A program made the translations under genes and the position numbers. This document shows, piece after piece, positions 1,599 through 61,793 of a stretch of 64,000 bases of DNA. The stretch's first letter is position 1. Each line of letters starts with the position of its first letter. The notes under the pieces are model-generated. The model was given only the letters and a program-made list of their open reading frames with translations. It made no database searches and was not told the DNA's origin. Source of the DNA: a virus (Duplodnaviria; Heunggongvirae; Uroviricota; Caudoviricetes). The DNA lies in the IMG/VR virus record IMGVR_UViG_3300013288_000004, positions 127,360-191,359 of that record, one strand, 5' to 3'.

Positions 1599-1670
1599 TG
1601 GTGCCCACTACGGGACTTAAACCCGTGACCAGCTATGTTTTCCGCTGCTCTTTCTCTGAGCTAAGAGGGC
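1599..1670 (-). tRNA. tRNA-like sequence, possible pseudo-tRNA (anticodon arm does not fold canonically)
   Basis: Minus-strand reverse complement has acceptor GCCCTCT/AGTGGGC, D-arm GCTC-AGAGAAA-GAGC, T-arm ACGGG-TTTAAGT-CCCGT and encoded ACCA. The 19 nt between D- and T-arms cannot form a 5-bp/7-nt anticodon arm. Confidence 0.35.
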
Positions 1671-1792
1671 ATTTGTTCTTGTTCACAATATTCTACTGGG
1701 AGTGACAATATGACTTATCACCCTATCACCAATTTGTATATCCAAAAATGGTGACTTCTGATAACATTCTTTTCATGGATATCATAAAATTT

Positions 1793-1933
1793 AAACATAT
1801 GCAGATTGACATTGTGATAACGAACCCGGTCCATTCCGTAAGTCTCGACAGTATACAGATTTCGAACTCTGTTGCTATCTCAGCCGGGTAGTATTCAATC
1901 GTCTTTAAATGGCACCATTTCTGGTTACATATG
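1793..1933 (-). repeat. structured repeat element, copy 1 (140 nt), conserved after the tRNA-like gene
   Basis: Near-identical ends (AACATATGCAGRTTGACATTGTGATAACGAACCCGGTCCATTCC ... GGTTACATATG) shared with 4055-4195. Internal T-arm-like hairpin differs by compensatory changes between copies. Confidence 0.4.
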
Positions 1934-2092
1934 TTATTCTTGATTTGTTGAAGCTATCATAGCTGACTCTTGGGTTGACGTCAAGCGTTCTAACAATTTT
2001 TCTATTCGTTGGATTGGCAACATTTGATTATAATAAAAGCCAGCATCTACTGGACTGTGCCCATCACCCATTCCATGAGTATCACACGAGCT

Positions 2093-2344
2093 TCAGCAAC
2101 AACAATATCCGACTTCGAAATCCCCTTCATTGATAACATTTATTACCATCTGTAAAGTTTCTTTTATTTCTTGTAAGAGTTCCTTATCCATTGTTTTGCT
2201 CGCCATTAATACGTTTTCTATAAACGTTAAAATGTCCAGATTTTGATTTTTCGGGGAGAGTTCCAAGATACTCATATCCTTGTTGTAACATATCAAGGTA
2301 CTCTTTCTCGACATGCCCATAACCTTCCTTAAACCGATGCTCAA
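2093..2344 (-). CDS. hypothetical protein
   Basis: 83-aa ORF; overlapping alternative ORF 2184-2399 in another frame. Confidence 0.3.
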   Translation of the reverse strand: MSIGLRKVMGMSRKSTLICYNKDMSILELSPKNQNLDILTFIENVLMASKTMDKELLQEIKETLQMVINVINEGDFEVGYCCC

Positions 2345-2355
2345 TTACTTTCCAT

Positions 2356-2652
2356 TCATATTGCATAAATAATCCTTTTACAATTAATAATATTATCAAT
2401 ATATTTACATTGTGTAGGTAAACATCGTGCTAAATCATATACATCATCATATTCATCAAAATCATCTAACCCAATATTCATCCAACCCAAAGCAAGTTTT
2501 TTAACTTTATCAAAAAGATAATCATTTGCCATAACTGCGTTCTCAAATTCTTCATATGTAAAACATTGAGAACCCCGAATTCTTTTATATTCGTCAAAGA
2601 ATGGTTGTAACATATTACGACTATCTACAGTAATTTTAAATTCAATTTTCAT
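2356..2652 (-). CDS. hypothetical protein
   Basis: 98-aa ORF in a tightly packed minus-strand run. Confidence 0.5.
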   Translation of the reverse strand: MKIEFKITVDSRNMLQPFFDEYKRIRGSQCFTYEEFENAVMANDYLFDKVKKLALGWMNIGLDDFDEYDDVYDLARCLPTQCKYIDNIINCKRIIYAI

Positions 2653-3091
2653 TTATATTTCGATTCCTCTTTATAGTGTATTTCAATTGAATATAATTAC
2701 ATGGTAGAACCGGTTTGATCAATAAGTCAACCCACATCAACTCTTTACCGATCATTCCATCCTTCCACAATTTAACTGCATGACGCTTACTACGACACTT
2801 AACATCATCAGCGTATGTTATAAATTCATTTTGATCTATTACAAATGGGCGGATATAATACCTTCTATTTTTACGAATAAATTCATAACTATGGTACGTG
2901 ACAGTCTTACAATCTGTTACGCCATAATCATATATCATATTTTTATCTTTAAAATATTCGCAAGTATCTTTTATAATACTTTCACAATTATGCAAATCAT
3001 TGGTAAATAGATCATGCATTAATCTTTGTGAACATTCTTCCTGTAATTTTTGAATTACTCTTCTGGTATTTACTTTACTTAAAGCGTCCAT
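2642..3091 (-). CDS. hypothetical protein
   Basis: 149-aa ORF; 11-nt overlap with the downstream gene (operon-like). Confidence 0.5.
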   Translation of the reverse strand: MDALSKVNTRRVIQKLQEECSQRLMHDLFTNDLHNCESIIKDTCEYFKDKNMIYDYGVTDCKTVTYHSYEFIRKNRRYYIRPFVIDQNEFITYADDVKCRSKRHAVKLWKDGMIGKELMWVDLLIKPVLPCNYIQLKYTIKRNRNINEN

Positions 3092-3389
3092 CGTCCACCA
3101 TTTGTTGTATTTCCGCTAAAATTTCTTTATCTATTTCATCTCTGATTTCGTTTGCCAATCTGCGCACAACATTGTTCATGGCTAAGTGCCATTGTCTTTT
3201 ATTGCGACGATATCTAGATTGCCATGGCTGAATTATTGCCTTATTGCGTTTAAATGCATACGTTTTTTTATACTGTAATGGAAGCCACCATTTTTCAGCC
3301 TCCATTGTCCAACTAGCAGTTAATTTTCTGCCTTCATGTTTCCAAAATAAACTTTTTATGTATTTGTATAATTTGTAAATTACATTCAT
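3075..3389 (-). CDS. hypothetical protein, paralog of 4593-4925
   Basis: Shares IIQPWQSxYxRxxR..H...V...A.EIxDEIDKEl.Ae motif block with ORF 4593-4925. Confidence 0.45.
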   Translation of the reverse strand: MNVIYKLYKYIKSLFWKHEGRKLTASWTMEAEKWWLPLQYKKTYAFKRNKAIIQPWQSRYRRNKRQWHLAMNNVVRRLANEIRDEIDKEILAEIQQMVDDGRFK

Positions 3390-3425
3390 TACTTAAATAT
3401 CTCTTTTGTCTGTCAATTACTGAAT

Positions 3426-3881
3426 TTATTGCTTTTCATTCAGATTGTCCTCAAGTTCTTTAATGCGTTTGCGAAGCTCGCCGTTAATGACACTCATATT
3501 CTTTATATTATCACGTTCAAAATCGACAGTTCGCAATGCTTTCTTTAAATTTACATTATTGAAATCACAGGCGTCAGCAATGTTTGAATCGCGATTGTCC
3601 CATTCTATAAATAATTCACGCTTTTTGAGCCTTCTAGCCGCAAGAGCATCCTCACTAATCTGCCACTTTCTTGCTACAAAGTCAATAGCTGCAAGTACAT
3701 CACCCATCTCTTCAGTCATTCTGGTTATCATGGAACCTTTACCATCCGGGTGATCATCACTATCATAATATGCGATTTTCTTTGCGCATATCTGAACTAG
3801 TTCACCGCATTCTTCCATCAATTTTGTTAAACCATTTGCAGACATCATAAAGCCAATATTCCTGTATAATTTGGAGCCCAC
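3426..3881 (-). CDS. MazG-like nucleotide pyrophosphohydrolase
   Basis: 151 aa; LMEECGELVQ ... EEMGDVLAAIDF blocks typical of the MazG/NTP-PPase all-alpha family. Confidence 0.5.
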   Translation of the reverse strand: MGSKLYRNIGFMMSANGLTKLMEECGELVQICAKKIAYYDSDDHPDGKGSMITRMTEEMGDVLAAIDFVARKWQISEDALAARRLKKRELFIEWDNRDSNIADACDFNNVNLKKALRTVDFERDNIKNMSVINGELRKRIKELEDNLNEKQ

Positions 3882-3946
3882 TACGGGACTTGAACCCGCG
3901 CTCGCCGCTATACGCTATCGCTGCTCTTTCTCTGAGCTAAATGGGC
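3872..3946 (-). tRNA. tRNA-like sequence, possible pseudo-tRNA
   Basis: Reverse complement GCCCATT-TA-GCTC-AGAGAAA-GAGC...GCGGG-TTCAAGT-CCCGT-AGTGGGC-T-CCA has good acceptor, D- and T-arms plus CCA. Anticodon region (contains CGCTATACGCTATCG direct repeat) has no canonical stem. Same family as 1599-1670. Confidence 0.35.
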
Positions 3947-3962
3947 TTAATTCTTTTTCATA

Positions 3963-4034
3963 CACCCTGTGACGGTATCGAACCGTCCTCTTCCAGATCA
4001 ATATAGATATTCTAGCCGCTATTACTAACAGGGT
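3963..4034 (-). tRNA. tRNA-like sequence (acceptor ACCCTGT/ACAGGGT, perfect T-arm GACGG-TTCGATA-CCGTC; D and anticodon arms non-canonical)
   Basis: Folded by eye on the minus strand; no CCA; low confidence. Confidence 0.3.
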
Positions 4035-4054
4035 GTACTATTACATATAAGTAA

Positions 4055-4195
4055 AACATATGCAGGTTGACATTGTGATAACGAACCCGGTCCATTCCTT
4101 AGTTCTCGATAGTTTGAGAGTTTCGAACCTCTCTGTCTAATCTCAGCCGGGTAGTATTCAACCGCCTTTAATGACACCGTTTCCGGTTACATATG
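4055..4195 (-). repeat. structured repeat element, copy 2
   Basis: Paralog of 1793-1933; hairpin GAGAG-GTTCGAAA-CTCTC here versus CAGA-GTTCGAAA-TCTG in copy 1 (covariation). Confidence 0.4.
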
Positions 4196-4600
4196 TTATT
4201 CTTGTTTCTCATTTGATGGCTCTATAGTATCTGGTAGCAGAGTCCTTGTCAACTGTTTGAGCAATTCTTCTCTGTCTAGTATAATTACATTATCACCTTC
4301 AACTGTCGCCCCACTATTGGAAGGATATGGAAAAATGTAATCTTCTTGTAACGATAGCGGATTGTAATAACCGTCTTGGTTATCAAGCTCTAGATCGTGG
4401 ATATCCTTCATCGCGAAATCCCTCTCTTCATTTTTATCAACGTCTAGAGCGTTTAAAAGAAATTGTGGCTCTTTGTGATATTCCGTTGATCCAAACCATA
4501 TGCAAATTGGGCGAATAGTTCTTACTGAACGTTCGCCCTTATAGTTTGTGTAATCAATCTTGAAATTGCAGTTATATGTCAAGTTTGCTATGTTATACAT
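4196..4600 (-). CDS. hypothetical protein
   Basis: 134-aa ORF. Confidence 0.45.
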   Translation of the reverse strand: MYNIANLTYNCNFKIDYTNYKGERSVRTIRPICIWFGSTEYHKEPQFLLNALDVDKNEERDFAMKDIHDLELDNQDGYYNPLSLQEDYIFPYPSNSGATVEGDNVIILDREELLKQLTRTLLPDTIEPSNEKQE

Positions 4601-4925
4601 TAAATAATGGCCCTCTAAATAATTTTACTAAATCTGCCATAAGTTCCTTATCAATTTCATCACATATCTCTTTAGCGCATTTCTTAACGAGAAGTCTTTC
4701 GATAATATGGGGATTTCTATTCCACCGCTTATATGATGACTGCCAAGGCTGAATAATATTATGATTTCTTTTACTCTTTGGTAGGATTCTATTGGTATTC
4801 AATCTACGCTTCGAAGTTTTCTCCCAAGATATATCTAAATCAAAATTGGCATCAAGCTTATAGCTCGGACCTCCCCTATTAACTCCATCCAATATAATAA
4901 ATGGCCCATTGACTGTATAATTCAT
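4593..4925 (-). CDS. hypothetical protein, paralog of 3075-3389
   Basis: Shared IIQPWQS.Y.R..R motif block. Confidence 0.45.
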   Translation of the reverse strand: MNYTVNGPFIILDGVNRGGPSYKLDANFDLDISWEKTSKRRLNTNRILPKSKRNHNIIQPWQSSYKRWNRNPHIIERLLVKKCAKEICDEIDKELMADLVKLFRGPLFNV

Positions 4926-5709: not shown

Positions 5710-6948
5710 TCAGATGTCCAAAGGCGTAACTTCGGGACAAGCCATCCCTAGTTGTCTCATTCCTGAGACATAAATATTTTTGGCAGCATTCCAATCTCTG
5801 TCCATTTTATGACCACAATCCGTACAGCAGAAGATTCGATCACTCAATTTCAAGTCTGATTTATAGCTACCACAACTAGAACATGATTTGGAAGTCGGTG
5901 CCCATTTATCTATTACAACTAAATTGTTGTTATAAATCAATGACTTGTATTTGAGTTGGCGTCGGGCTTCGCCCACGCCACCATCAATTCCTGACTTCCC
6001 AAACATTTTGCTCCAGCTTTTCAAATTCAAATCTTCTATAATTATCGTTTGGTTTTCGCGACAGATTTGAGTTGTAAATTTGTGTGTGAAATCGTGACGT
6101 AAGTCACTGATTTCTTTATGTATTTTTGCTACTTTACATCTTTGTTTCTTTTTGTTTTGACTTCCATCTTTTCTCTTTGAACAAATTCTCTGATACCTTT
6201 TCAGCTTTTGAAGCTTGTTTTTCAATGGTTTTGGTGCATCGAAAGATGCGCCATTTTGATCAACCGCGAAAGTTTTGATGCCAAAATCAATTGCTATGGT
6301 GTTATCTGATGTTCTAGCTTTACCATAATCATTCATCTCTACCGCAATTGATATAAACCATTTATCAGCTTTTCGACTGACCACAGCAGACATGATCTTA
6401 CCTTCAAATCTCAATGTCTCTTCCAATTTAATTTTTCCAATTAGTGGAAGTTTAATCATATTATCAGTTATGTGAAATTGATCGTTTGAGACATAAAATG
6501 AATCGCGTTTGTACTTTTTCTTAAACTGCGGATACGCGGTTCGTTTGTCGAAGAAACCTTTGAAAGCACTTTGTAAATTTGTAAATGGTTGTTGATTTGC
6601 ATCTTTTGGTGAATCGTATATCCATGGAAATTCCTGCTTTTTAATGGAATTGAATTGCTTTTTCAATTTTAATGCTGACGGTTTCTCGCCTGCCATATAT
6701 TGCTTATTCCATTCGGCCAAAGCCCAATTGTAAGTGAATCTGGCGCAGCCTGCGGCTCGCGCCAGCATCTGCTTCTGTTCTTTGTTGGGTTTTAACTGAA
6801 TTTTGTGGGCAAGATTCACGGCGATTTTATTCGCTTTTTCTCTTAACTTTGGCGTCTTTCGGCACCAATATAGTGCGTGATGCCGTTTGGTATGCACCTT
6901 CGATGTAGCCAAGGTGGAACCAATTGTAAGCTGTTCTGTAACATACAC
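5710..6948 (-). CDS. tnpB: IS607/IS605-family TnpB (OrfB) RNA-guided endonuclease
   Basis: 412 aa; N-terminal LKPNKEQKQMLARAAGCARFTYNWAL; RuvC-I IAIDFGIKTFA, RuvC-II IIIEDLNLKSW, zinc finger CSSCGS...CCTDCGH, RuvC-III DRDWNAAKNI. All catalytic blocks intact. Confidence 0.85.
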   Translation of the reverse strand: MYVTEQLTIGSTLATSKVHTKRHHALYWCRKTPKLREKANKIAVNLAHKIQLKPNKEQKQMLARAAGCARFTYNWALAEWNKQYMAGEKPSALKLKKQFNSIKKQEFPWIYDSPKDANQQPFTNLQSAFKGFFDKRTAYPQFKKKYKRDSFYVSNDQFHITDNMIKLPLIGKIKLEETLRFEGKIMSAVVSRKADKWFISIAVEMNDYGKARTSDNTIAIDFGIKTFAVDQNGASFDAPKPLKNKLQKLKRYQRICSKRKDGSQNKKKQRCKVAKIHKEISDLRHDFTHKFTTQICRENQTIIIEDLNLKSWSKMFGKSGIDGGVGEARRQLKYKSLIYNNNLVVIDKWAPTSKSCSSCGSYKSDLKLSDRIFCCTDCGHKMDRDWNAAKNIYVSGMRQLGMACPEVTPLDI

Positions 6949-6985
6949 CTTGCGTCTTTGCGAAATCTACTAATTTTATCATCAT
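6828..6985 (-). pseudogene. remnant of IS607 TnpA serine recombinase (MerR-like HTH N-terminus only, about 52 codons)
   Basis: Minus-strand ORF MMIKLVDFAKTQGVCYRTAYNWFHLGYIEGAYQTASRTILV... matches the HTH N-terminus of IS607 TnpA (compare the intact TnpA at 20845-21411). No resolvase catalytic domain follows; the TnpB ORF begins overlapping it in another frame. Confidence 0.45.
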
Positions 6986-7030
6986 TTTTCAATCCTTTAC
7001 ATCTATTTATACGGATTTTAAAAATACGCG

Positions 7031-7288
7031 CTAACAATTTTTGATTTCTTGTTCCTTTAATCGTTTAATTTCTCTACGCATTAAGTTGTCATAATTGTTC
7101 ATTGCAACACCAATATTACCACCACTTTCGGCGTGTTGCAATATCAACTCTTCTTTGATTTTTTCTAAAGGTGAAAATGGGTATGAGGTTAGATTCCATA
7201 AAATTGTATCACATTCCTCATAGGTTAAATCTTGTGACCAATACTTGCGAACAAAATCTACAAAAGTGCCTTCAGTTATTTCTTCCAT
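7031..7288 (-). CDS. hypothetical protein
   Basis: 85-aa ORF. Confidence 0.45.
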   Translation of the reverse strand: MEEITEGTFVDFVRKYWSQDLTYEECDTILWNLTSYPFSPLEKIKEELILQHAESGGNIGVAMNNYDNLMRREIKRLKEQEIKNC

Positions 7289-9672: not shown

Positions 9673-10421
9673 ACTAACTCCGTGTGTCTTCGTTGTCTTG
9701 CGTTTAGAAAATTGATTACTTCAGGATTGACTATTTGATTGATGACACCAGCGCCTCGCCAGATTCGCAAAGCTGCAAGATTTGCGTCAAGATAAGAGCC
9801 GGGGGTTACGGATGTCGATCCGATCCTGACGTCAGATGAGCTACCGGCTCGTGCGCCTCCAACTAAAGTGGTTGTCACAGCCGCATCCGTGCCGATTTTC
9901 ACTCCAATTACATCTGCATTTGGATCGTGCCAACATAACACAGGAATCCATTCACTCATCGGTACATTAGCAGAAACCGATACAGCGCCATCAGCAGCGA
10001 CAGATCTCCCAACAGTAAAGATCAAAGTCGACAAAGAAAAGTAAATAATGAATGCTCTTGCGGTAGCAGTAGCGACCACAGTACTCGGTGATTTGGCAAA
10101 AATGATGCGGGCGCCAGTTGCGTTTCGCTTGGCCCAAAAGTGCATGGCCCATTCATTATCTAAAATATTTACATTTGATGTTCCTGAACTTGGCAGATAG
10201 AGATGCTCCGAGTTATCTGGTGTAAACAAGCGTGACCCGTATCCGGGCGTTGCTCCGGCGGCGGATTCCACTGTATTCACATCAATGAAATCATACTCAC
10301 TAATACTTTGATCAATAGCGTCCCCACTAACCTCTTCAAGATCAAGTGAAAGAACTAAATTAGATGATAGGTCCAAGCTACCATTAGACCGTTGTAAGAA
10401 CCTGCCGCCGCGTTTAATCAC
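9669..10421 (-). CDS. hypothetical phage tail protein (GC-rich island)
   Basis: 250 aa; Gly/Ser/Thr/Ala-rich beta-type composition typical of fibre/baseplate-distal proteins. Confidence 0.5.
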   Translation of the reverse strand: MIKRGGRFLQRSNGSLDLSSNLVLSLDLEEVSGDAIDQSISEYDFIDVNTVESAAGATPGYGSRLFTPDNSEHLYLPSSGTSNVNILDNEWAMHFWAKRNATGARIIFAKSPSTVVATATARAFIIYFSLSTLIFTVGRSVAADGAVSVSANVPMSEWIPVLCWHDPNADVIGVKIGTDAAVTTTLVGGARAGSSSDVRIGSTSVTPGSYLDANLAALRIWRGAGVINQIVNPEVINFLNARQRRHTELV

Positions 10422-10777
10422 GCTGTACTTCCTCCAATGATCACGGAGTTTGTTCCATCACATTCCCACCATAGGAATGATGGGTCAGCAGCACTTCCTG
10501 TGTGTCCAGTAGACGCAGCATCAGGGGTTATGACCATTGATCCCGTCACTGACCAAGTGATGACCCCAGCTCCAACGGCTCGCATAATCAAGCCGCCCAT
10601 TCCAGCGGTTAAAGTGTCAGGAAATATAGCGCTGTTCGCTCCAGCATCCGTAAACCTTACGCACTTGTTTACATCACTTGGGCCAAAAGTGTGAGAGTTG
10701 GTAGACGTTGGTTCTTTATAAGTCTGCCTTGCGACAAAAGAACCTTCGACTTCAAACTCATCCGTAGTAATTTTCAT
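10418..10777 (-). CDS. hypothetical phage tail protein (GC-rich island)
   Basis: 119 aa; overlapping stop/start with neighbours. Confidence 0.5.
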   Translation of the reverse strand: MKITTDEFEVEGSFVARQTYKEPTSTNSHTFGPSDVNKCVRFTDAGANSAIFPDTLTAGMGGLIMRAVGAGVITWSVTGSMVITPDAASTGHTGSAADPSFLWWECDGTNSVIIGGSTA

Positions 10778-10808
10778 GTGTGTATATCCCTATTAGTCTA
10801 ATTGATAT

Positions 10809-12596
10809 TTATGCTGCTTGAATCAGTTCGACTCGACCAACCCAATAAGTTGTCGTTGCGTTGGCAGGAGTTACTTGGATTACGATTGCACCCGCACCCG
10901 CACCCGTTGCCGGTACTACATTGATCGTTGGTGTGCCTAAAGCAGCATCTAAACCCTTGGTAGTAACCGTGTTAGTGCCAACGATTATTGCATTGCCGCT
11001 AGCTCCCCGGCGTGCAGTACCTTCGATCTTCCACGATCCAGCAGCGGCGCCAGACGCATGCACCGCAACAACCCGCGCTTCGAAATCTGCGCCAGAGTTA
11101 ATTGGCAACACCATCACATTCGTGGCGGATTCGGCGCCACCGTCCGCCGTGAGCGTTGTTGCGGATGCTGCGCTGGTCGTAATGCGGACTGGCTGTACTA
11201 TAACCTGCGCGTCGCCTAATGCCGCACGCTGACCAGCACTATACGCGCCTGCGCCATATAGCAGGCGCGTAGTGGCCGTCGATCCTCCGGGAATCCACGA
11301 CAGCGGACCAGATGCCAAGTTTGCATACCCACCACCAACAGCAGAAGTTTGTCCTCCTGCTATGTTTGTATTACCGCCAGCGACGACAGAAGTTGAACCT
11401 GAGGCAGTGTTTCTGAATCCCCCTGCGCATGTCGCCCATGCGCCGGAAGCGACCTGCGTAGCGAGAGTGCGAGTGCTTGTCTGCCAATCAACTGCATTCG
11501 TCCCGCGCGCATTACCACCCGCCGTGGTGCTATCCGGAACCTGCGCAGACAAAGCGCCTGTACCCGCAGGAGTCAGTGCGACGTTGATGTTAGCGGTGCC
11601 AGTACCCGCACTCTGCGCAGCGATCTGCATCCAACCGGATGTGGCGCCGGGAATGAGTGCCAAACGCTCGTAGTTGCTGGCATCGGTATAGGTATTGTAA
11701 ATGCGGGAAGTTTGGGTGGTAACACCACTACGTTGCGCAAGTATCCCAGCGGCATCCCTGAAAAGAGCTGTGCCCGTGCTGAAAGATAGAGACGCACTAG
11801 CGCTTACTACATTTATATCCGTAGTAGATATACTGATCATGCGCGTCCCGGAGCCGCTCCACATAGTGAGCGTACCTCCGTAGTTGCCGATGCCAGCAAC
11901 ACCGGGATCTTGCACTCCGGGTGACGTAGGAAATACGATAGCCCCGCGCCTCAGTATGCGGACAAAATCTGATCCATCCACACTAAATGTAGCGAACCTG
12001 CTCAGCACATCGCTAGCGGTATTCGTCACGTTGAGTTTGATGCCCTCAAACGTAACCGCAGCGTTATTCCAAGTCTGCGCAAGATTAAGAACAGGGTTAC
12101 TAGCAGTAAGGACACCGCCGCCTAGCGCTACAGTCTTGTTAGTCGTGTTGTAAGTAAACCCTGAGTCGCCGGCAAGTGCGCCAGCGTTGTTGAACTGAAT
12201 CTGTGTGTCTGCGCCACCCGCTGTTGCTGGGAAGGTAGCGGGCTTGTCTGTTATATCATCCCAGCCTACTGCGCCAGCATCGCCTGCTGAAAATTTATCG
12301 TATTCAATTCCTATATCAATGTCAAAAGCAGTAATATCTGGGCGAAGTATTTTATATTCACCCGGATATGATATTGTTAATGAGTATGCACTACCACTCA
12401 TAGCTACGACACCATTTAAGTAAAATGATTCGTAAATATCGAGAACATTTTTTCTTTTAACTCTAAAAAGAGGAATATCCTTCGGAATGTTCACAGTAGG
12501 ACTGAAAATGGTTAATTGTAACACTTCGTTCTCGCCAACAATGATTGACGATGTTAGTGTTTTAGTCCTTCCAGCGGTTAATAGAACAGTTGACAT
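10809..12596 (-). CDS. tail fibre protein (mosaic: AT-rich N-terminus, GC-rich C-terminal receptor-binding region)
   Basis: 595 aa; long Gly/Ala/Thr/Ser/Asn-rich fibre-like repeats (GGADTQIQFNNAGALAGDSGFTYN, NTASGSTSVVAGGNTNIAGGQTS). First ~100 codons are AT-rich like the host genome, the remainder ~60% GC. TATAAATA-like element 23 nt upstream. Confidence 0.7.
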   Translation of the reverse strand: MSTVLLTAGRTKTLTSSIIVGENEVLQLTIFSPTVNIPKDIPLFRVKRKNVLDIYESFYLNGVVAMSGSAYSLTISYPGEYKILRPDITAFDIDIGIEYDKFSAGDAGAVGWDDITDKPATFPATAGGADTQIQFNNAGALAGDSGFTYNTTNKTVALGGGVLTASNPVLNLAQTWNNAAVTFEGIKLNVTNTASDVLSRFATFSVDGSDFVRILRRGAIVFPTSPGVQDPGVAGIGNYGGTLTMWSGSGTRMISISTTDINVVSASASLSFSTGTALFRDAAGILAQRSGVTTQTSRIYNTYTDASNYERLALIPGATSGWMQIAAQSAGTGTANINVALTPAGTGALSAQVPDSTTAGGNARGTNAVDWQTSTRTLATQVASGAWATCAGGFRNTASGSTSVVAGGNTNIAGGQTSAVGGGYANLASGPLSWIPGGSTATTRLLYGAGAYSAGQRAALGDAQVIVQPVRITTSAASATTLTADGGAESATNVMVLPINSGADFEARVVAVHASGAAAGSWKIEGTARRGASGNAIIVGTNTVTTKGLDAALGTPTINVVPATGAGAGAIVIQVTPANATTTYWVGRVELIQAA

Positions 12597-12618
12597 AAAT
12601 TATCCATGATATTTTGTA

Positions 12619-13799: not shown

Positions 13800-13897
13800 C
13801 AGACCGGCAGGGACTTGAACCCCGATCATCAGTTTTCCTAAATATTCTTTTACAAAAACATTTAGGAGACTGGTATGCTGCCATTGCACCACCGATC
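13800..13897 (-). tRNA. tRNA-like sequence with ~30-nt palindromic insert (CCTAAAT...ATTTAGG); anticodon uncertain
   Basis: Acceptor GATCGGT/GCCGGTC (2 GU), T-arm CGGGG-TTCAAGT-CCCTG; length ~98 nt. Confidence 0.3.
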
Positions 13898-14004
13898 TAT
13901 ATTACTTTATTTATTCCATTCTACAGTAGCATTTTTTGCAAAACCTGTAAATGGCATCTTTATGCAAACGCTTTTAATTCACGTTCTCTAGCTATTCTTT
14001 CCAT

Positions 14005-19618: not shown

Positions 19619-20848
19619 TCAATGCCAATAATGACATAACTTAGGTTTTGTGTCAAGTGAAATTTTCACTGACAAGGGCCAACTACATGCCTCTATCGGA
19701 TCAATTTTTACATCTCCGACTGCTTTTCTCATAATATTATATGCGCCATTGACATCTGCATTTATTTCTAAATCAAGACATTTGTCTTTATAAATTCCTC
19801 TGGTTTTTCTATATCCAGAAAATTTCATGTCATCCGTCTTCTCTCCATATGTCGGAATCATATCATTACTCAAACATGATGCCTTTGATGTATAGCTCTC
19901 TTCCTGACAAATGACATTAATTCCTCTTGATTCGGCTTTATATGTCAACATTTGTTTCAATTTATTGAATGGCACTGACACAAAATTTTGATTATTTTTC
20001 TTTCCGATGTTTATCTCTTGTTTCCAACCTTTATTTTCACCGATTATTAAGGTGTTTATTTGGTTGAAATCTAATTGATTAATAAGCCACGTACTTGCTT
20101 TATGTAAATAATCACGAATTTTGTCATTTCTTTTTCTAGAAATGGCGTTGATTCTATTACTTGTCTTTCTTTTGTCTCCTAATTTTGATTGTAGTTCTGC
20201 TTTTCTTTTATTATAATATTGGTTTATAGCTTTCAATGGTTTTCCATTTATTAAAAATGGTTTCATGACATTTGACGCTGTTGCTACTAAATTACTTAAA
20301 CCGATATCAACGGACAAATAACGACTATTGTCACTTCTTTTGTCTTCTATATCTGTCAAATATATCACTTCTATATCAAAATGATTGCTTCTCGGAACAA
20401 CTCTAACCTGTTGTATATCTGTTTTTTCTGTCTTTATAAAGATGTCATAACCAGATAATTTTACATATCCAGGTTTAACGAAAGATAATGCCTGATTAGT
20501 GAAAATTGTCACATATTTACCTGATTTGTCTAGGTAATTTGGTATACGTACCTTGTCATTTTTCTTTGCTTTCAACAAAGCAAAGAATGATCTAAAATTT
20601 TGATCAACCAATTTTAAGGTCTGTTGTGACACTTTTCTAGGTAATTGCTGGTAATCTATATTAGTTTTTGCGAAATCACCAGCTAATTTTGAATAGCCGA
20701 TGTATGTTTTTGTGGAGAAAAAATGCTGACGAATGGCATACAAAGATGCATTATACAAGTTTTTGGACTTGTGAGTCAGATCACACAAGTCACTAAAATA
20801 ATGACTTGTGCGACATATGGCATGCTTTTCTACACGTCTAGCTTTCAT
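19619..20848 (-). CDS. tnpB: IS607-family TnpB (OrfB) RNA-guided endonuclease
   Basis: 409 aa; RuvC-I LSVDIGLSNL, RuvC-II LIIGENKGW, RuvC-III INADVNGAYNI; zinc-finger cysteines reduced (only 2 Cys); 4-nt overlap with tnpA. Confidence 0.85.
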   Translation of the reverse strand: MKARRVEKHAICRTSHYFSDLCDLTHKSKNLYNASLYAIRQHFFSTKTYIGYSKLAGDFAKTNIDYQQLPRKVSQQTLKLVDQNFRSFFALLKAKKNDKVRIPNYLDKSGKYVTIFTNQALSFVKPGYVKLSGYDIFIKTEKTDIQQVRVVPRSNHFDIEVIYLTDIEDKRSDNSRYLSVDIGLSNLVATASNVMKPFLINGKPLKAINQYYNKRKAELQSKLGDKRKTSNRINAISRKRNDKIRDYLHKASTWLINQLDFNQINTLIIGENKGWKQEINIGKKNNQNFVSVPFNKLKQMLTYKAESRGINVICQEESYTSKASCLSNDMIPTYGEKTDDMKFSGYRKTRGIYKDKCLDLEINADVNGAYNIMRKAVGDVKIDPIEACSWPLSVKISLDTKPKLCHYWH

Positions 20849-24529: not shown

Positions 24530-24605
24530 TGGTGCAACCGAGAGGCTTCGAACCTCCAACACCTGACATTTCACGCCAGTGCTCTACCAGTTGAGCTACA
24601 GTTGC
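24530..24605 (-). tRNA. tRNA-Phe(GAA)
   Basis: GCAACTG-TA-GCTC-AACTGGTA-GAGC-A-CTGGC-GTGAAAT-GTCAG-GTGTT-GGAGG-TTCGAAG-CCTCT-CGGTTGC-A-CCA; canonical. Confidence 0.85.
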
Positions 24606-25664: not shown

Positions 25665-25737
25665 CGGGCATGATAGGAGTCGAACCCACAGCCGAATGAT
25701 TCGTATTCATTCCATCGTCCATCGAAAGTGCATACCC
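25665..25737 (-). tRNA. tRNA-Arg(ACG), 5' region atypical
   Basis: Acceptor GGGTATG/CATGCCC, anticodon arm AATGA-ATACGAA-TCATT, T-arm GTGGG-TTCGACT-CCTAT; D-arm spacing irregular. Confidence 0.5.
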
Positions 25738-45672: not shown

Positions 45673-48303
45673 ATGGCTACAATAGAAGATAAATTAAAAT
45701 TTGCTGCGAAGAATGAACTAAATGTCATGCTGATCGGGCATGCTGGAGTTGGAAAAACTTCAATAGTTAAAAACATATTCGAAGAACTTGGATTAAAGTA
45801 TCTGTACTACTCAGCTTCTACCATGGACCCATGGGTAGATTTTGTTGGAGTCCCGCACGAAGTAACTGGAGAAGACGGTGTAAAATATCTCGACCTAGTT
45901 CGTCCTAAAGCATTCGCATATGATGATGTTGAAGCTATCTTTTTGGATGAATATAATAGATGCATCAGTGGTGATACCAAAATTCTGTTAGCCGATGGTA
46001 CATCAGAAGCTGTTAAGGATTTAGTCGGTAGAGAACATTTTTATGTGTATTCTTTTGACACCAAAAACAAAAGTATAGAAATTGCAAAAGCACATTCTGC
46101 TAGAATTACCGTCAGAAACGAAAACTTACTAAAAATAACATTAGATAATGGCGCATCATTCAAATGTACAAAAGATCACCCTATATTAAGAATAACTGGA
46201 GAATTTGACTTAGCTGAGAATTTTTCAGTCAACGATTCTCTAATGCCGTGCTATCGTTTCTGGAAACAAACCGGATATGAATATATAATGCAACCACAAG
46301 GAAAGAAATGGGAATTAACGTATCTTTTGGCTGATTTATACAACTTAAGAAATAATATTTATAAAATTGATGATGGTGAGCATCGTCATCATGTAGATTT
46401 TGACAAACATAATAATTCACCAGAAAATATATTGAGATTAACAGAATCTGCGCACATGTCTCTCCATGCCAATCATGATGAGAAATCTATTATGGGTGGT
46501 AGAATGGCGCATAAAATTCACCCGGACTTGTATGCAAGGACAATAGGCACCGAGGAAAGTAGGAAAAAAATGAAAGAACGGTCGGCATTGGTAAGAAAAA
46601 CTTGTCCAAAATATAAAGCGAAGCGCTCTATCGCAAGCAAAAAAATGTATACTCAAGAGATGAGGGATTATCGTGCGGAAGTAACCAAAAAACAATGGCA
46701 AACTGAACAATTTAAGAATATAGACAGAAAGGCTTCCTTAGAAAGAAATCATCTATCTAGAGTATTAAACTTTCTCACGGATAATAATATAAACATCGGC
46801 GAATTGACCGAAGAAAACTATAAAAATGCTTACTTGGAAAGAAGTAGAAATAAAAGACGACTGCCAATGAAACATTCTACCATAATAACAAAATTTTCAG
46901 ATTTTGAAAATTTCAAAAAAATACTATTGGAATTTCAATCAGCTAAAAAAAATGGTAATCATAAAATAATAAAAATCGAAGAAGTTGATGCTGAAGATAC
47001 TTACGATATTACGGTTGATGAATTTGAGAATTTTGCCCTAGAGTGTGGAATTTTTGTTCATAATTCACCAATCAAGGTAAGGAACGCTGTTATGGAATTG
47101 ATACAATTCAAATCCATCAATGGTAAAAAATTCAATAATCTAAAACTGGTTTGGGCCGCAATAAATCCTAGTGATGAGGATGATACAGGAAAAACATATG
47201 ATGTTGAAGCTCTTGACCCGGCACAATTAGATCGTTTCCATTTTCACATTGAAATGCCTTATGCTTTAAATAAAAAATATTTCAAATCAAAATACCCAGA
47301 GTATGTAGATGCTGTTCTTGAATGGTGGAATGCTCTACCAAAACCACAAAAGAATTTAGTATCTCCTAGACGTGTTGACATGGCTTTAAGCGTTCTCAGA
47401 AATGGCGGTGATCTAAATTGGATATTACCAAATAATGTAAACTGTAAAGAATTGGTAGACATTCTAGATAATGGAACATTTTCCGCTAGAGTGGGCAATT
47501 GTTTTGAAGAAAAGAATGAAGAAAAAACTAAGAATTTATTGACTGACAATGACAAAACTCTTAGCAAATACATGAAGTGTATATTCCAAAAGAATGAATA
47601 TATTGAATATTTCATGCCATTCATCACTGATGAACAAATGATGAGCATGATAACCAACAACAATAAACCCGTCATAGATTATGTGTCACGAGCAGATATT
47701 GCCGTAACTCGTGAAAAATTGTTAAGTAGCATAGTAAAAGCTAAATCAGTGAAAAAGGATTTGTTGGACAAATTCAACAATGTATTAAAAGTCATTAGAC
47801 AATCAAAACAAAAAATAGATGTTACGTCTAATGTTGCGCATTTACCCTCCGAATCTTTGTGTATAGGTAAAAATGAAAATAGTCATATTGATTTAGAATC
47901 AAATCGTGACTGGCTAGATTTTTATCATAGGATTACATCAACTAGATATGTTCCAAATACATACGACAGGAAAAAAGTCTTTTTGGCGCTTACTGATATG
48001 GGTGGTGCTATCTATGATTATAAAATGCCAGAAAAAACAGAATTAATCGGTAATATATTTGATTGTGCTGTTTCTATAATAAAAAGTACTTATAATATTG
48101 TGCATGGCAAAGAAAACTTAATATATTTAATTAAAATTATGAATTCGTGTGATGTAATTTTATCAGAACACAATATAGATATATTCGCCTTAATGAAAAA
48201 GAAAACAGATAGAATAGACAAAGCGTTAAAAGTAATAGAACAAGAACAATCGTGCTATGATATGTTAAATTCAAAATTCAAGGACTATCATGATAATTTA
48301 TAA
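45673..48303 (+). CDS. MoxR/CobS-like AAA+ ATPase (AAA_5) interrupted by an HNH-containing intein
   Basis: 876 aa; Walker A LIGHAGVGKTS, Walker B IFLDEYNR immediately followed by Cys (intein start CISGDTKILLADG); extein resumes ...VHN|SPIKVRNA; sensor region AQLDRF. Confidence 0.8.
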   Translation: MATIEDKLKFAAKNELNVMLIGHAGVGKTSIVKNIFEELGLKYLYYSASTMDPWVDFVGVPHEVTGEDGVKYLDLVRPKAFAYDDVEAIFLDEYNRCISGDTKILLADGTSEAVKDLVGREHFYVYSFDTKNKSIEIAKAHSARITVRNENLLKITLDNGASFKCTKDHPILRITGEFDLAENFSVNDSLMPCYRFWKQTGYEYIMQPQGKKWELTYLLADLYNLRNNIYKIDDGEHRHHVDFDKHNNSPENILRLTESAHMSLHANHDEKSIMGGRMAHKIHPDLYARTIGTEESRKKMKERSALVRKTCPKYKAKRSIASKKMYTQEMRDYRAEVTKKQWQTEQFKNIDRKASLERNHLSRVLNFLTDNNINIGELTEENYKNAYLERSRNKRRLPMKHSTIITKFSDFENFKKILLEFQSAKKNGNHKIIKIEEVDAEDTYDITVDEFENFALECGIFVHNSPIKVRNAVMELIQFKSINGKKFNNLKLVWAAINPSDEDDTGKTYDVEALDPAQLDRFHFHIEMPYALNKKYFKSKYPEYVDAVLEWWNALPKPQKNLVSPRRVDMALSVLRNGGDLNWILPNNVNCKELVDILDNGTFSARVGNCFEEKNEEKTKNLLTDNDKTLSKYMKCIFQKNEYIEYFMPFITDEQMMSMITNNNKPVIDYVSRADIAVTREKLLSSIVKAKSVKKDLLDKFNNVLKVIRQSKQKIDVTSNVAHLPSESLCIGKNENSHIDLESNRDWLDFYHRITSTRYVPNTYDRKKVFLALTDMGGAIYDYKMPEKTELIGNIFDCAVSIIKSTYNIVHGKENLIYLIKIMNSCDVILSEHNIDIFALMKKKTDRIDKALKVIEQEQSCYDMLNSKFKDYHDNL
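45961..47064 (+). other. intein (368 aa) with HNH homing-endonuclease domain
   Basis: N-terminal Cys + block A ISGDTKILLADG; internal HRHHVDFDKHNNSPENILRLTESAHMSLH (HNH); C-terminal block G FVHN followed by Ser. Confidence 0.75.
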
Positions 48304-61337: not shown

Positions 61338-61418
61338 GTAGTTTTTAATTCCATATTAGCAAACGTATTTATCTTAGTGTTTTTATTTGTAAACCTAAAA
61401 ACCGGTGGGCATAAACAA

Positions 61419-61446
61419 AAACACCAGCGAAAGCTGGTGTTTTGTA
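61419..61446. terminator. rho-independent terminator hairpin
   Basis: AACACCAGC-GAAA-GCTGGTGTTTTG. Confidence 0.55.
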
Positions 61447-61647
61447 ATCTTATTTGGTAACAAGGTAGATTAGACCCCGTGATAGTTCATGCCGCTTGCG
61501 CGTACTCGACATCAAAAAATTCATCGTTAGATGCATTTATAGTTTCATGCTGATTAGGTCAGTCATCTATCCGGTTGCCACATACACACTCCACTATGAG
61601 TCGAAGCCAATTATACCCCCGTCAAAAGATTACAGACCATAATCTTT

Positions 61648-61720
61648 TGGTGGAGGTAAGCGGAGTCGAACCGCTGTGTTCATAACTTTGTTGTAATGGG
61701 ATTACAACCATTTATTCTTC
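61648..61720 (-). tRNA. tRNA-like 3' portion (T-arm AGCGG-TTCGACT-CCGCT, acceptor strand TACCTCC, encoded ACCA); 5' half not identifiable
   Basis: Direct inspection; adjacent 7-bp hairpin TTGTAAT-CCC-ATTACAA. Confidence 0.3.
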
Positions 61721-61793
61721 TTTCGAAGAATTTTTAAAAATACCTTTCATAATTCTACCAATCAAATAACCTTCCGCTATATATTTATCTAAA

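Follow-up and report, generated by a model that had tools for sequence, protein, structure and literature searches.

Paralogous phage loci encoding a structured non-coding RNA of 143 nt beside tRNA-like genes without a foldable anticodon arm

What is encoded by two similar blocks of phage DNA, each of which holds a tRNA-like gene with no foldable anticodon arm and, a short distance away, an element of about 140 nt? The blocks lie at positions 1599-1933 and 3872-4195 of a 64,000-nt stretch of a Caudoviricetes genome (hereafter the window; positions 127,360 to 191,359 of IMG/VR record IMGVR_UViG_3300013288_000004), in which a sequence-only reading had reported them as a duplicated module shaped by selection on RNA structure. 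Both were found at these coordinates with all of their parts on the minus strand, which is also the coding strand of the neighbouring genes. A 32-mer from the element (GGAATGGACCGGGTTCGTTATCACAATGTCAA) and a 22-mer from the tRNA-like gene (TTAGCTCAGAGAAAGAGCAGCG) occur exactly twice each in the window, against a shuffle expectation of 0.00 for both (100 shuffles). The element is a non-coding minus-strand RNA of 143 nt whose structure has been kept by compensatory change. The earlier description is refined here in three respects: the module functions on the minus strand, it forms an operon driven by a promoter, and its tRNA-like gene is part of a recurrent phage scaffold.

Read along the minus strand, each block runs from the end of an upstream open reading frame (ORF) through a promoter, the 143-nt RNA, a spacer and the tRNA-like gene (tRNA-like A) with its encoded CCA to the ribosome-binding site (RBS) of the next ORF, which falls within ~15 nt after the CCA in both copies. 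The two copies of the RNA are 91% identical over 143 nt, and the spacers that follow them cannot be aligned.

Structure and covariation of the 143-nt RNA

RNAalifold gave 38 consensus pairs in six helices (Table 1). P1 is a terminal helix of 10 bp that clamps both ends of the RNA, P2 (ACCR-GAAA-YGGU) is a hairpin with a GNRA tetraloop at the junction, and P4, P5, P6 and P7 form a long arm with asymmetric, invariant internal loops, the apex of which, GUUCGAAA, is a loop of 8 nt and likewise invariant. There may also be a weak P3 (GYC...GRC). The invariant loops and junctions are GAAUACU, CUGAGAU, GUUCGAAA, CGAGA, GGAAUGGA and UUCGUUAUCACAAUG. The combination of a GNRA loop with a T-loop-like cap suggests a compact tertiary fold, as in protein-binding RNAs or ribozymes.

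Between the copies 26 columns vary, 15 of them paired, and not one of the 15 paired changes breaks a pair. Fourteen of them make up seven double compensatory changes, with one in P2, one in P4 (GRUUGA/UCAAYC) and five in P7, while the fifteenth converts U.G to U-A in P6. P7 is the hairpin for which compensatory change had originally been claimed, and it reads, on the minus strand, ACAGA-GUUCGAAA-UCUGU in one copy where the other has GAGAG-GUUCGAAA-CUCUC, so that all five pairs are changed on both sides; the claim is upheld and can be extended to P2 and P4. Sliding the 3' partners by 1-3 columns reduced pairing from 100% to 22-40%. The P7 swap was possibly a single event, and three or four independent pair-preserving events are therefore counted, not seven; with two sequences, the shuffle control has a floor of 4 in 500.

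Both copies fold, and do so better on the minus strand (-35.7 and -39.8 kcal/mol, z = -2.3 and -2.7) than on the plus strand (-32.4 and -32.8 kcal/mol, z = -1.5 and -1.3). U.G pairs in P1, P5 and P6 are possible on the minus strand only, and these strand-specific pairs together with the better folding identify minus as the functional strand. A protein-coding identity was rejected, as the short open frames that exist are not conserved between the copies; a 1-nt deletion and a 2-nt insertion place the nucleotide-identical 3' halves in different frames. Selection on RNA structure, as first proposed, is consistent with both observations, namely the retention of pairing at all varied paired positions and the lack of conserved reading frames.

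No Rfam 15 family matched the 143-nt RNA in searches of 64 kb, 3 kb or 161 nt, at the gathering score and at E<=10, the best match in the 161-nt search being a 22-nt viral pseudoknot model (E = 0.95). Megablast and blastn against 50,697 GenBank phages gave no match to it. Two metagenome scans gave nothing or chance matches, a genome scan gave none, and the covariance model R1, rerun on every recovered locus, gave no further homolog. Exact and gapped motif scans of IMG/VR recovered only an identical ortholog in a close relative, the 315-kb contig IMGVR_UViG_3300048591_000147, which is ~95% identical to the window across 1.75 kb around copy 2. Over the 381 nt from promoter to CCA this relative has 0 differences, compared with 1.2-2.9% in the flanking ORFs, which constitutes modest extra evidence for constraint.

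Several known identities were tried and rejected. The possibility of a tRNA, with or without an intron, was examined with ARAGORN -i -ps80, which made no minus-strand call over 1794-1935 or 4055-4197; at -ps60 there was one noise-level plus-strand call overlapping copy 2, the mitochondrial options returned noise, and the Rfam tRNA clan CL00001 had no minus-strand match in the 143-nt RNA. Splicing out P5-P7 leaves 76 nt and no cloverleaf. A hammerhead core was rejected on the misfit of CUGAGAU to CUGANGA, and a miniature inverted-repeat transposable element, for which inverted ends are present, on the lack of target-site duplication and on homology that continues past both ends. An omega RNA or solo right end of a TnpB element was also rejected, since the nearest tnpB ends at 5710, 1.5 kb away, the 3' flanks of both tnpB genes are unlike the element, and the relative carries the element without a tnpB there. 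The absence of Rfam matches, and of tRNA calls by relaxed or intron-aware ARAGORN, supports the earlier suggestion of a novel small-RNA family or a highly divergent tRNA-like gene, and the 143-nt RNA can credibly be designated a new family, one phage lineage being its only known source so far.

tRNA-like genes and a recurrent phage scaffold

Both copies of tRNA-like A have U8 A9, a D-arm GCUC-AGAGAAA-GAGC, a 5-bp T-stem with a 7-nt T-loop, and CCA. The D-arm and the 3' acceptor strand are the same in the two copies and the T-arms are nearly alike. Between D-arm and T-arm lie 19-23 unstructured nt that differ wholly between the copies, this central region folding at -1.5 and -2.7 kcal/mol with at most 3/5 pairs in the anticodon stem, and in copy 1 only 2 nt are left for a variable loop. 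The loops at the anticodon position, AGCGUAU and AAACAUA, have G33 and A33 in place of U33, and offer no plausible anticodon. Because the centre is unfolded and wholly different between copies while the remainder is nearly alike, constraint is taken to act on the acceptor stem, T-arm and D-arm and not on the anticodon region. ARAGORN called neither copy by default and both only at -ps80, while the Rfam tRNA model (RF00005) scored copy 2 at 40.6 bits (gathering score 29) and left copy 1 unreported at E<=10. The original description of this gene was accurate for the acceptor (7/7 and 6/7 pairs), the T-arm, the CCA and the lack of a foldable anticodon arm, whereas the good D-arm ascribed to it is normal in its stem only, the loop AGAGAAA being without G18G19 in both copies.

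A different tRNA-like gene (tRNA-like B), which had gone unremarked, occupies the spacer of copy 2, where copy 1 has unrelated sequence. It has a canonical T-arm (GACGG-UUCGAUA-CCGUC) and, as read from the sequence, G18G19 in register; its D-stem and anticodon stem are unpaired, CCA is not encoded, and neither ARAGORN nor Rfam matched it.

The exact 15-nt D-arm GCTC-AGAGAAA-GAGC was found in ~25 distinct other tRNA-shaped genes with unrelated acceptor stems. IMG/VR supplied 21 contigs with 16 distinct other sequences, and a search of 185,579 species genomes supplied seven more, six of them on contigs of metagenome-assembled genomes (MAGs); most members are viral or on short MAG contigs. The group is defined by U8 A9, GCUC-AGAGAAA-GAGC, a standard acceptor and T-arm, and a variable or non-standard anticodon arm, all of which are present in both copies of tRNA-like A. 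By automated parse, all but two members have seven acceptor pairs; the T-arms are all canonical and CCA is mostly encoded.

It is in the anticodon arm that the members of this group diverge. Stop-codon anticodons are present in several loci (CUA in L038/39 and L051; UCA in L040, L044, L048, L052 and L053), and other genes have anticodon stems capped by GNRA or GNNNA loops (GAAA in L058, GCAA in L047, GAAAA in L049, and GAAUA, GCCCA, GUUGA and GUAGA elsewhere), by tri-loops (L050 and L059) or, in L041 (gene 4209-4288), by a 4-nt CCGG loop on an 8-bp stem. Further loops are of 6, 8, 9 or 10 nt, ordinary loops are a minority, and some members have G33 plus a Watson-Crick 32-38 pair. The gene of L058 (3477-3548) and one gene of L057 are identical except in the anticodon arm and variable loop, which is the same pattern of difference as between the copies of tRNA-like A.

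In eight loci, representing seven distinct phage lineages, the tRNA-like gene is associated with a neighbouring gene for a PTH2-like protein, a peptidyl-tRNA hydrolase of archaeo-eukaryotic type; these counts record an association. The distance is at most ~100 nt in five loci and ~0.6 to 1.4 kb in the others, and one of the proteins reaches 24.7 bits against Pfam PF01981 (cutoff 23). A protein-first search found further PTH2-like genes next to non-canonical tRNAs. This proximity suggests that the PTH2-like gene and the AGAGAAA tRNA-like gene may form a protein-RNA pair. PTH2 is known in jumbo phages (PMC7824862); the searchable literature contained neither the D-arm sequence nor a description of the AGAGAAA group, and made no mention of this tRNA partner of PTH2. 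No PTH2-like ORF was found in the window, and covariance model R1 found no 143-nt homolog at any AGAGAAA locus.

tRNA-like A belongs to a recurrent and apparently undescribed phage scaffold of tRNA mimics. It is possible, if doubtful, that these anticodon-less, CCA-ended AGAGAAA mimics, which in other phages are linked to PTH2-like genes, serve outside decoding as decoys or substrates of acceptor-end enzymes, and that in this lineage they have co-evolved with the dedicated 143-nt partner as one module of an undescribed phage RNA system.

Putative expression signals of the blocks and competing explanations

Sigma-70-type promoter sites occupy the same aligned position in both copies, and the relative phage has the site of copy 2 unchanged. 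Of the motif TTGACN-N16-18-TANNNT the window has 26 occurrences on its minus strand and 4 on its plus strand, where ~13 would be expected for both strands together, and many of the sites end in TAAGAT or TATGAT; the minus-strand excess suggests dense early promoters of host type. The tRNA-Phe gene and a tRNA-Arg(ACG)-like gene each lie 12 nt past near-identical promoters (TTGACA...ACTAAATAG.TGTA..AT), so that promoters of this kind seem to serve RNA genes in the phage. On the plus strand, a strong promoter-like site (1571-1598; TTGACA, 16 nt, TATATT, 11/12) lies just outside the CCA end of copy 1 and a perfect TATAAT (3865-3870) lies outside that of copy 2, both aimed antisense into the RNA blocks; these may be chance mimicry by AT-rich ribosome-binding regions.

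Homology between the copies begins ~95 nt upstream of the 143-nt RNA, takes in the promoter and resumes at the tRNA-like gene. The downstream genes differ, encoding a 58-amino acid (aa) protein in one case and a MazG-like protein in the other. The 134-aa ORF upstream of copy 2 is phrog_3715, whose homologs in four other phages do not have RNA genes for neighbours; no paralog of it was detectable at copy 1, which is preceded by a 45-codon remnant ORF whose end resembles that of the 134-aa ORF. Paralogous small basic proteins are encoded on the minus strand upstream of both RNA blocks, at 3075-3389 and 4593-4925 (49% identity over 51 aa; motif IIQPWQS.Y.R), so that the ancient duplication may have been larger than the RNA module.

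The explanation preferred here, tentatively, is that the blocks are two paralogous minus-strand non-coding RNA operons in which tRNA-processing enzymes free the 143-nt RNA as a stable small RNA that acts in trans. Transcription would start ~14-20 nt before P1, and host RNase P and 3'-end tRNA-processing enzymes would then excise the tRNA-shaped element, a step proposed because the parts this element has kept are those that these enzymes recognise. By the same cut the 143-nt RNA would become a free and stable small RNA with its ends protected by the 10-bp P1, and the released RNA would work through its invariant unpaired segments GUUCGAAA, GGAAUGGA and UUCGUUAUCACAAUG, with a protein as the most likely partner. 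Alternatively, the purine-flanked palindrome UUCGAA in the apical loop could mediate a kissing dimer. A precedent for such processing is provided by RNAC and RNAD of phage T4, both of them excised from the transcript that carries the T4 tRNAs.

Several points weigh against this explanation. The ends of the 143-nt RNA, its processing and its action in trans are all inferred from the DNA. The covariation comes from two paralogs and one identical ortholog, the five P7 pair changes may represent one replacement event, and gene conversion between the copies could explain part of their sequence identity. There is no terminator after either RNA block and before the next ORF, so that the RNAs could be part of a long 5' leader. 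Finally, no partner protein or RNA target was found for the 143-nt RNA: duplex prediction gave pairing with the neighbouring tRNA-like genes no better than shuffles.

The main rival, which is judged unlikely, is that the 143-nt RNA is itself a highly derived tRNA mimic, serving with tRNA-like A as decoy or substrate for a factor that recognises the acceptor and T-arm, such as a host tRNA-targeting defence toxin, a tRNA-modifying enzyme or a PTH2-type hydrolase. Such an origin would account for the T-loop sequence UUCGAAA inside the apical loop GUUCGAAA, for the invariant GG-containing strand GGAAUGGA near the hairpin, and for a 5' end composed of an 8-bp stem, UA and a 4-bp hairpin, which resembles an acceptor stem, U8 A9 and a D-arm. 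It also agrees with the co-duplication of tRNA-like A, which retains acceptor, T and D parts only while its anticodon region wholly differs, and with the wider group, in which a GNRA cap or a tri-loop often closes the anticodon arm of genes that share the D-arm, with PTH2-like neighbours in seven lineages. However, the sole register in which both copies pair gives the apical loop 8 nt and not the canonical 7, and the element does not yield a cloverleaf. Rfam models for tRNA, tmRNA and others find nothing in it, nor does relaxed ARAGORN, and the window showed no PTH2-like ORF and, among the 25 Pfam families listed of the 27 found, no Ro60/TROVE, RtcB or RNA-ligase family. A cis-acting leader of a long mRNA into the downstream genes, either riboswitch-like or a processing or stability element, is still less probable: the missing terminator between RNA block and next ORF and the closeness of the RBS to the CCA in both copies would be expected of it, but not the unrelated downstream genes, the one or two tRNA-shaped elements that intervene before the ORF, or the lack of an expression-platform hairpin over a terminator or RBS.

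The restriction of the element to two closely related genomes raises the question of whether the duplication is a non-functional relic, kept similar by gene conversion, with decaying pseudogenes for tRNA-like genes. The degenerate look of the anticodon regions of tRNA-like A (3/5 stem pairs) and the loss of D and anticodon stems in tRNA-like B would fit such decay; neither decay nor gene conversion would keep pairing at 15/15 varied paired positions, the acceptor, T and D parts of tRNA-like A are nearly identical though the centre has been replaced, and the promoter is conserved, all of which make a relic very unlikely. Little credence is given to a role at the DNA level, as a small mobile element whose termini are inverted repeats (AACATATG...CATATGTT) or as a hairpin site of recombination or replication, even though the ends form an 8-10-bp inverted repeat around the palindrome CATATG and two IS605-type TnpB genes lie in the window. 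Homology starts ~95 nt upstream and is found again at the tRNA-like gene, well past the inverted repeats, there is no target-site duplication, the TnpB 3' flanks are unlike the element and the relative has the element without TnpB, and the GNRA loop and strand-specific G.U pairs fit an RNA. A functional plus-strand transcript, antisense to the tRNA-like genes, appears equally remote: the plus-strand promoter-like sites at 1571-1598 and 3865-3870 do aim into the blocks, but this strand folds more poorly, its counterparts of the G.U pairs are A.C mismatches, the tRNA-like genes, CCA included, have minus as their reading strand, and an AT-rich ribosome-binding region looks like a -10 box from the other strand.

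Genome setting and comparison with known RNAs

The window is AT-rich (~34% GC), with most of its ORFs, which are mostly small, on the minus strand. ARAGORN found seven canonical tRNAs in it, and Rfam gave two further tRNA-model matches elsewhere. A Pfam scan of 68 window ORFs identified Clp protease, ATP-grasp and macro-domain genes; TROVE, RtcB and RNA-ligase families were absent from the 25 families listed of the 27 found. A GC-rich island at 10000-12600 (52% against ~34% GC) is possibly a foreign insertion; its 595-aa ORF matched nothing in Pfam. In a tRNA-Arg(CCU)-like gene, an insertion of ~28 nt in the anticodon loop lengthens the anticodon stem into a hairpin of ~14 bp; the insertion is neither a bulge-helix-bulge intron nor long enough for a group I intron.

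Homologs of the DNA-binding protein encoded at 914-1360 were found in 602 phage records (identity up to ~44%), which are mostly Synechococcus cyanophages together with Vibrio, Acinetobacter and Pseudomonas phages; large Caulobacter and Acinetobacter phages are among the records that match best. GenBank phages gave no nucleotide match to the window by megablast or blastn. A 661-aa window protein has no homolog among them, and the lineage is therefore poorly sampled. The genome is jumbo-phage-like, and its source is probably a poorly sampled jumbo phage.

Table 1. Positions of the RNA blocks, their signals and other features (window positions, except for the PTH2-like genes, which are numbered within their own loci)
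Feature	Position	Strand	Details
143-nt RNA copy 1	1794-1935	minus	RNAalifold/fold
143-nt RNA copy 2	4055-4197	minus	identical in IMGVR_UViG_3300048591_000147
Copy 1 P1	1926-1935/1794-1803	minus	
Copy 1 P2	1914-1925	minus	
Copy 1 P4	1895-1900/1804-1809	minus	
Copy 1 P5	1882-1889/1824-1832	minus	
Copy 1 P6	1875-1879/1847-1851	minus	
Copy 1 P7	1855-1872	minus	
Copy 2 P1	4188-4197/4055-4064	minus	
Copy 2 P2	4176-4187	minus	GAAA loop
Copy 2 P4	4158-4163/4065-4070	minus	
Copy 2 P5	4145-4152/4085-4093	minus	
Copy 2 P6	4137-4142/4108-4112	minus	
Copy 2 P7	4116-4133	minus	loop GUUCGAAA
tRNA-like A copy 1	1599-1670	minus	acceptor 6/7 pairs (one U.U); 19-20 unstructured nt at the place of the anticodon arm; discriminator A; CCA encoded
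tRNA-like A copy 2	3872-3946	minus	acceptor 7/7; 22 unstructured nt at the place of anticodon arm and variable loop; discriminator U; CCA encoded
tRNA-like B	3963-4034	minus	copy 2 spacer only; acceptor 7 bp, perfect (ACCCUGU/ACAGGGU); fold z = -3.96
Copy 1 spacer	1673-1793	minus	two local hairpins; not alignable with copy 2; sits where copy 2 has tRNA-like B
Copy 1 promoter-like site	1956-1984	minus	TTGACG, 17 nt, TATGAT; within 45-codon remnant ORF; -10 ends 21 nt before P1
Copy 2 promoter-like site	4224-4252	minus	TTGACA, 17 nt, TACTAT; in last codons of 134-aa ORF; -10 ends 27 nt before P1
tRNA-Phe	24530-24605	minus	12 nt after promoter motif
tRNA-Arg(ACG)-like	25665-25737	minus	weak, 28.9 bits; 3-bp D-stem; no CCA
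tRNA-Arg(CCU)-like	13800-13898	minus	Rfam 44.6 bits; missed by ARAGORN
Transfer-messenger RNA (tmRNA), permuted (two-piece)	61396-61752	minus	betaproteobacterial type; tag ASNDEFFDVEYAQAA; Rfam 103 + 98 bits
IS605-type TnpB (OrfB)	5710-6948	minus	absent from relative phage at syntenic position
IS605-type TnpB (OrfB)	19619-20848	minus	
AAA ATPase split by intein	45673-48303	plus	adjoined by DUF2201 metallopeptidase-like gene and ATP-grasp genes
PTH2-like gene, L058	3066-3470		
PTH2-like gene, L054/L065	~6876-7154		
PTH2-like gene, L060	2919 to ~3310		
PTH2-like gene, L051	3043-3441		
PTH2-like gene, L047	3044-3262		
PTH2-like gene, L041	3432-3638		
PTH2-like gene, L038	2931-3755		
PTH2-like genes, L066-L068			

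The 143-nt RNA belongs to a known and unexplained kind, the phage small RNAs that are encoded with tRNA genes, on record since T4 RNAC and RNAD. It is a tractable new example of that kind, with a GNRA loop, a T-loop-like or palindromic apical loop, and long invariant internal loops, and its two natural variants amount to a compensatory-mutation experiment. If the AGAGAAA RNAs act outside decoding, they would represent a new player in the conflict between phage and host over tRNAs.

GOLLD and ROOL are large structured RNAs (>500 nt) of phages and prophages that are included in Rfam, often lie beside tRNA genes and have no assigned function. The 143-nt RNA is likewise phage-borne, structured and near tRNAs, and differs from them in being shorter and having no Rfam match. 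Phage stop-codon suppressor tRNAs and other phage tRNAs with GCUC-AGAGAAA-GAGC, among them genes of other viral contigs with CUA or UCA anticodons, share D-arm, UA linker, T-arm and CCA with tRNA-like A, which differs from them in having no foldable anticodon arm and a variable region other than the usual AGGUC. The Y RNAs of YrlA type, partners of Ro60/Rsr, have in common with the 143-nt RNA a long end-to-end stem and an inner T-loop-like hairpin, and these tRNA-mimicking RNAs also occur in phages (PMC4201824). In contrast to YrlA, no Ro60/TROVE gene appeared among the listed Pfam families of the window, GNCGAA(N)G is absent from both copies of the RNA and no Rfam match was obtained; moreover, YrlA has T, acceptor-like and D stem-loops in that order, whereas the 143-nt RNA has one T-like hairpin with no D stem-loop after it.

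A further comparison is with T4 RNAC (species 1, 139 nt) and RNAD (species 2, 119 nt), which are, like the 143-nt RNA, small and encoded beside phage tRNA genes on the gene-coding strand. Both are made from the tRNA-region transcript, RNAC has a tRNA-type T-arm, and their role has been without assignment for decades. A search of the T4 tRNA region with covariance model R1, filters off, gave no match above noise at RNAC or RNAD, and the helix layout differs. Unlike these two RNAs, the 143-nt RNA has its own promoter, exists in two diverged copies and is followed in each by an anticodon-less tRNA-like gene.

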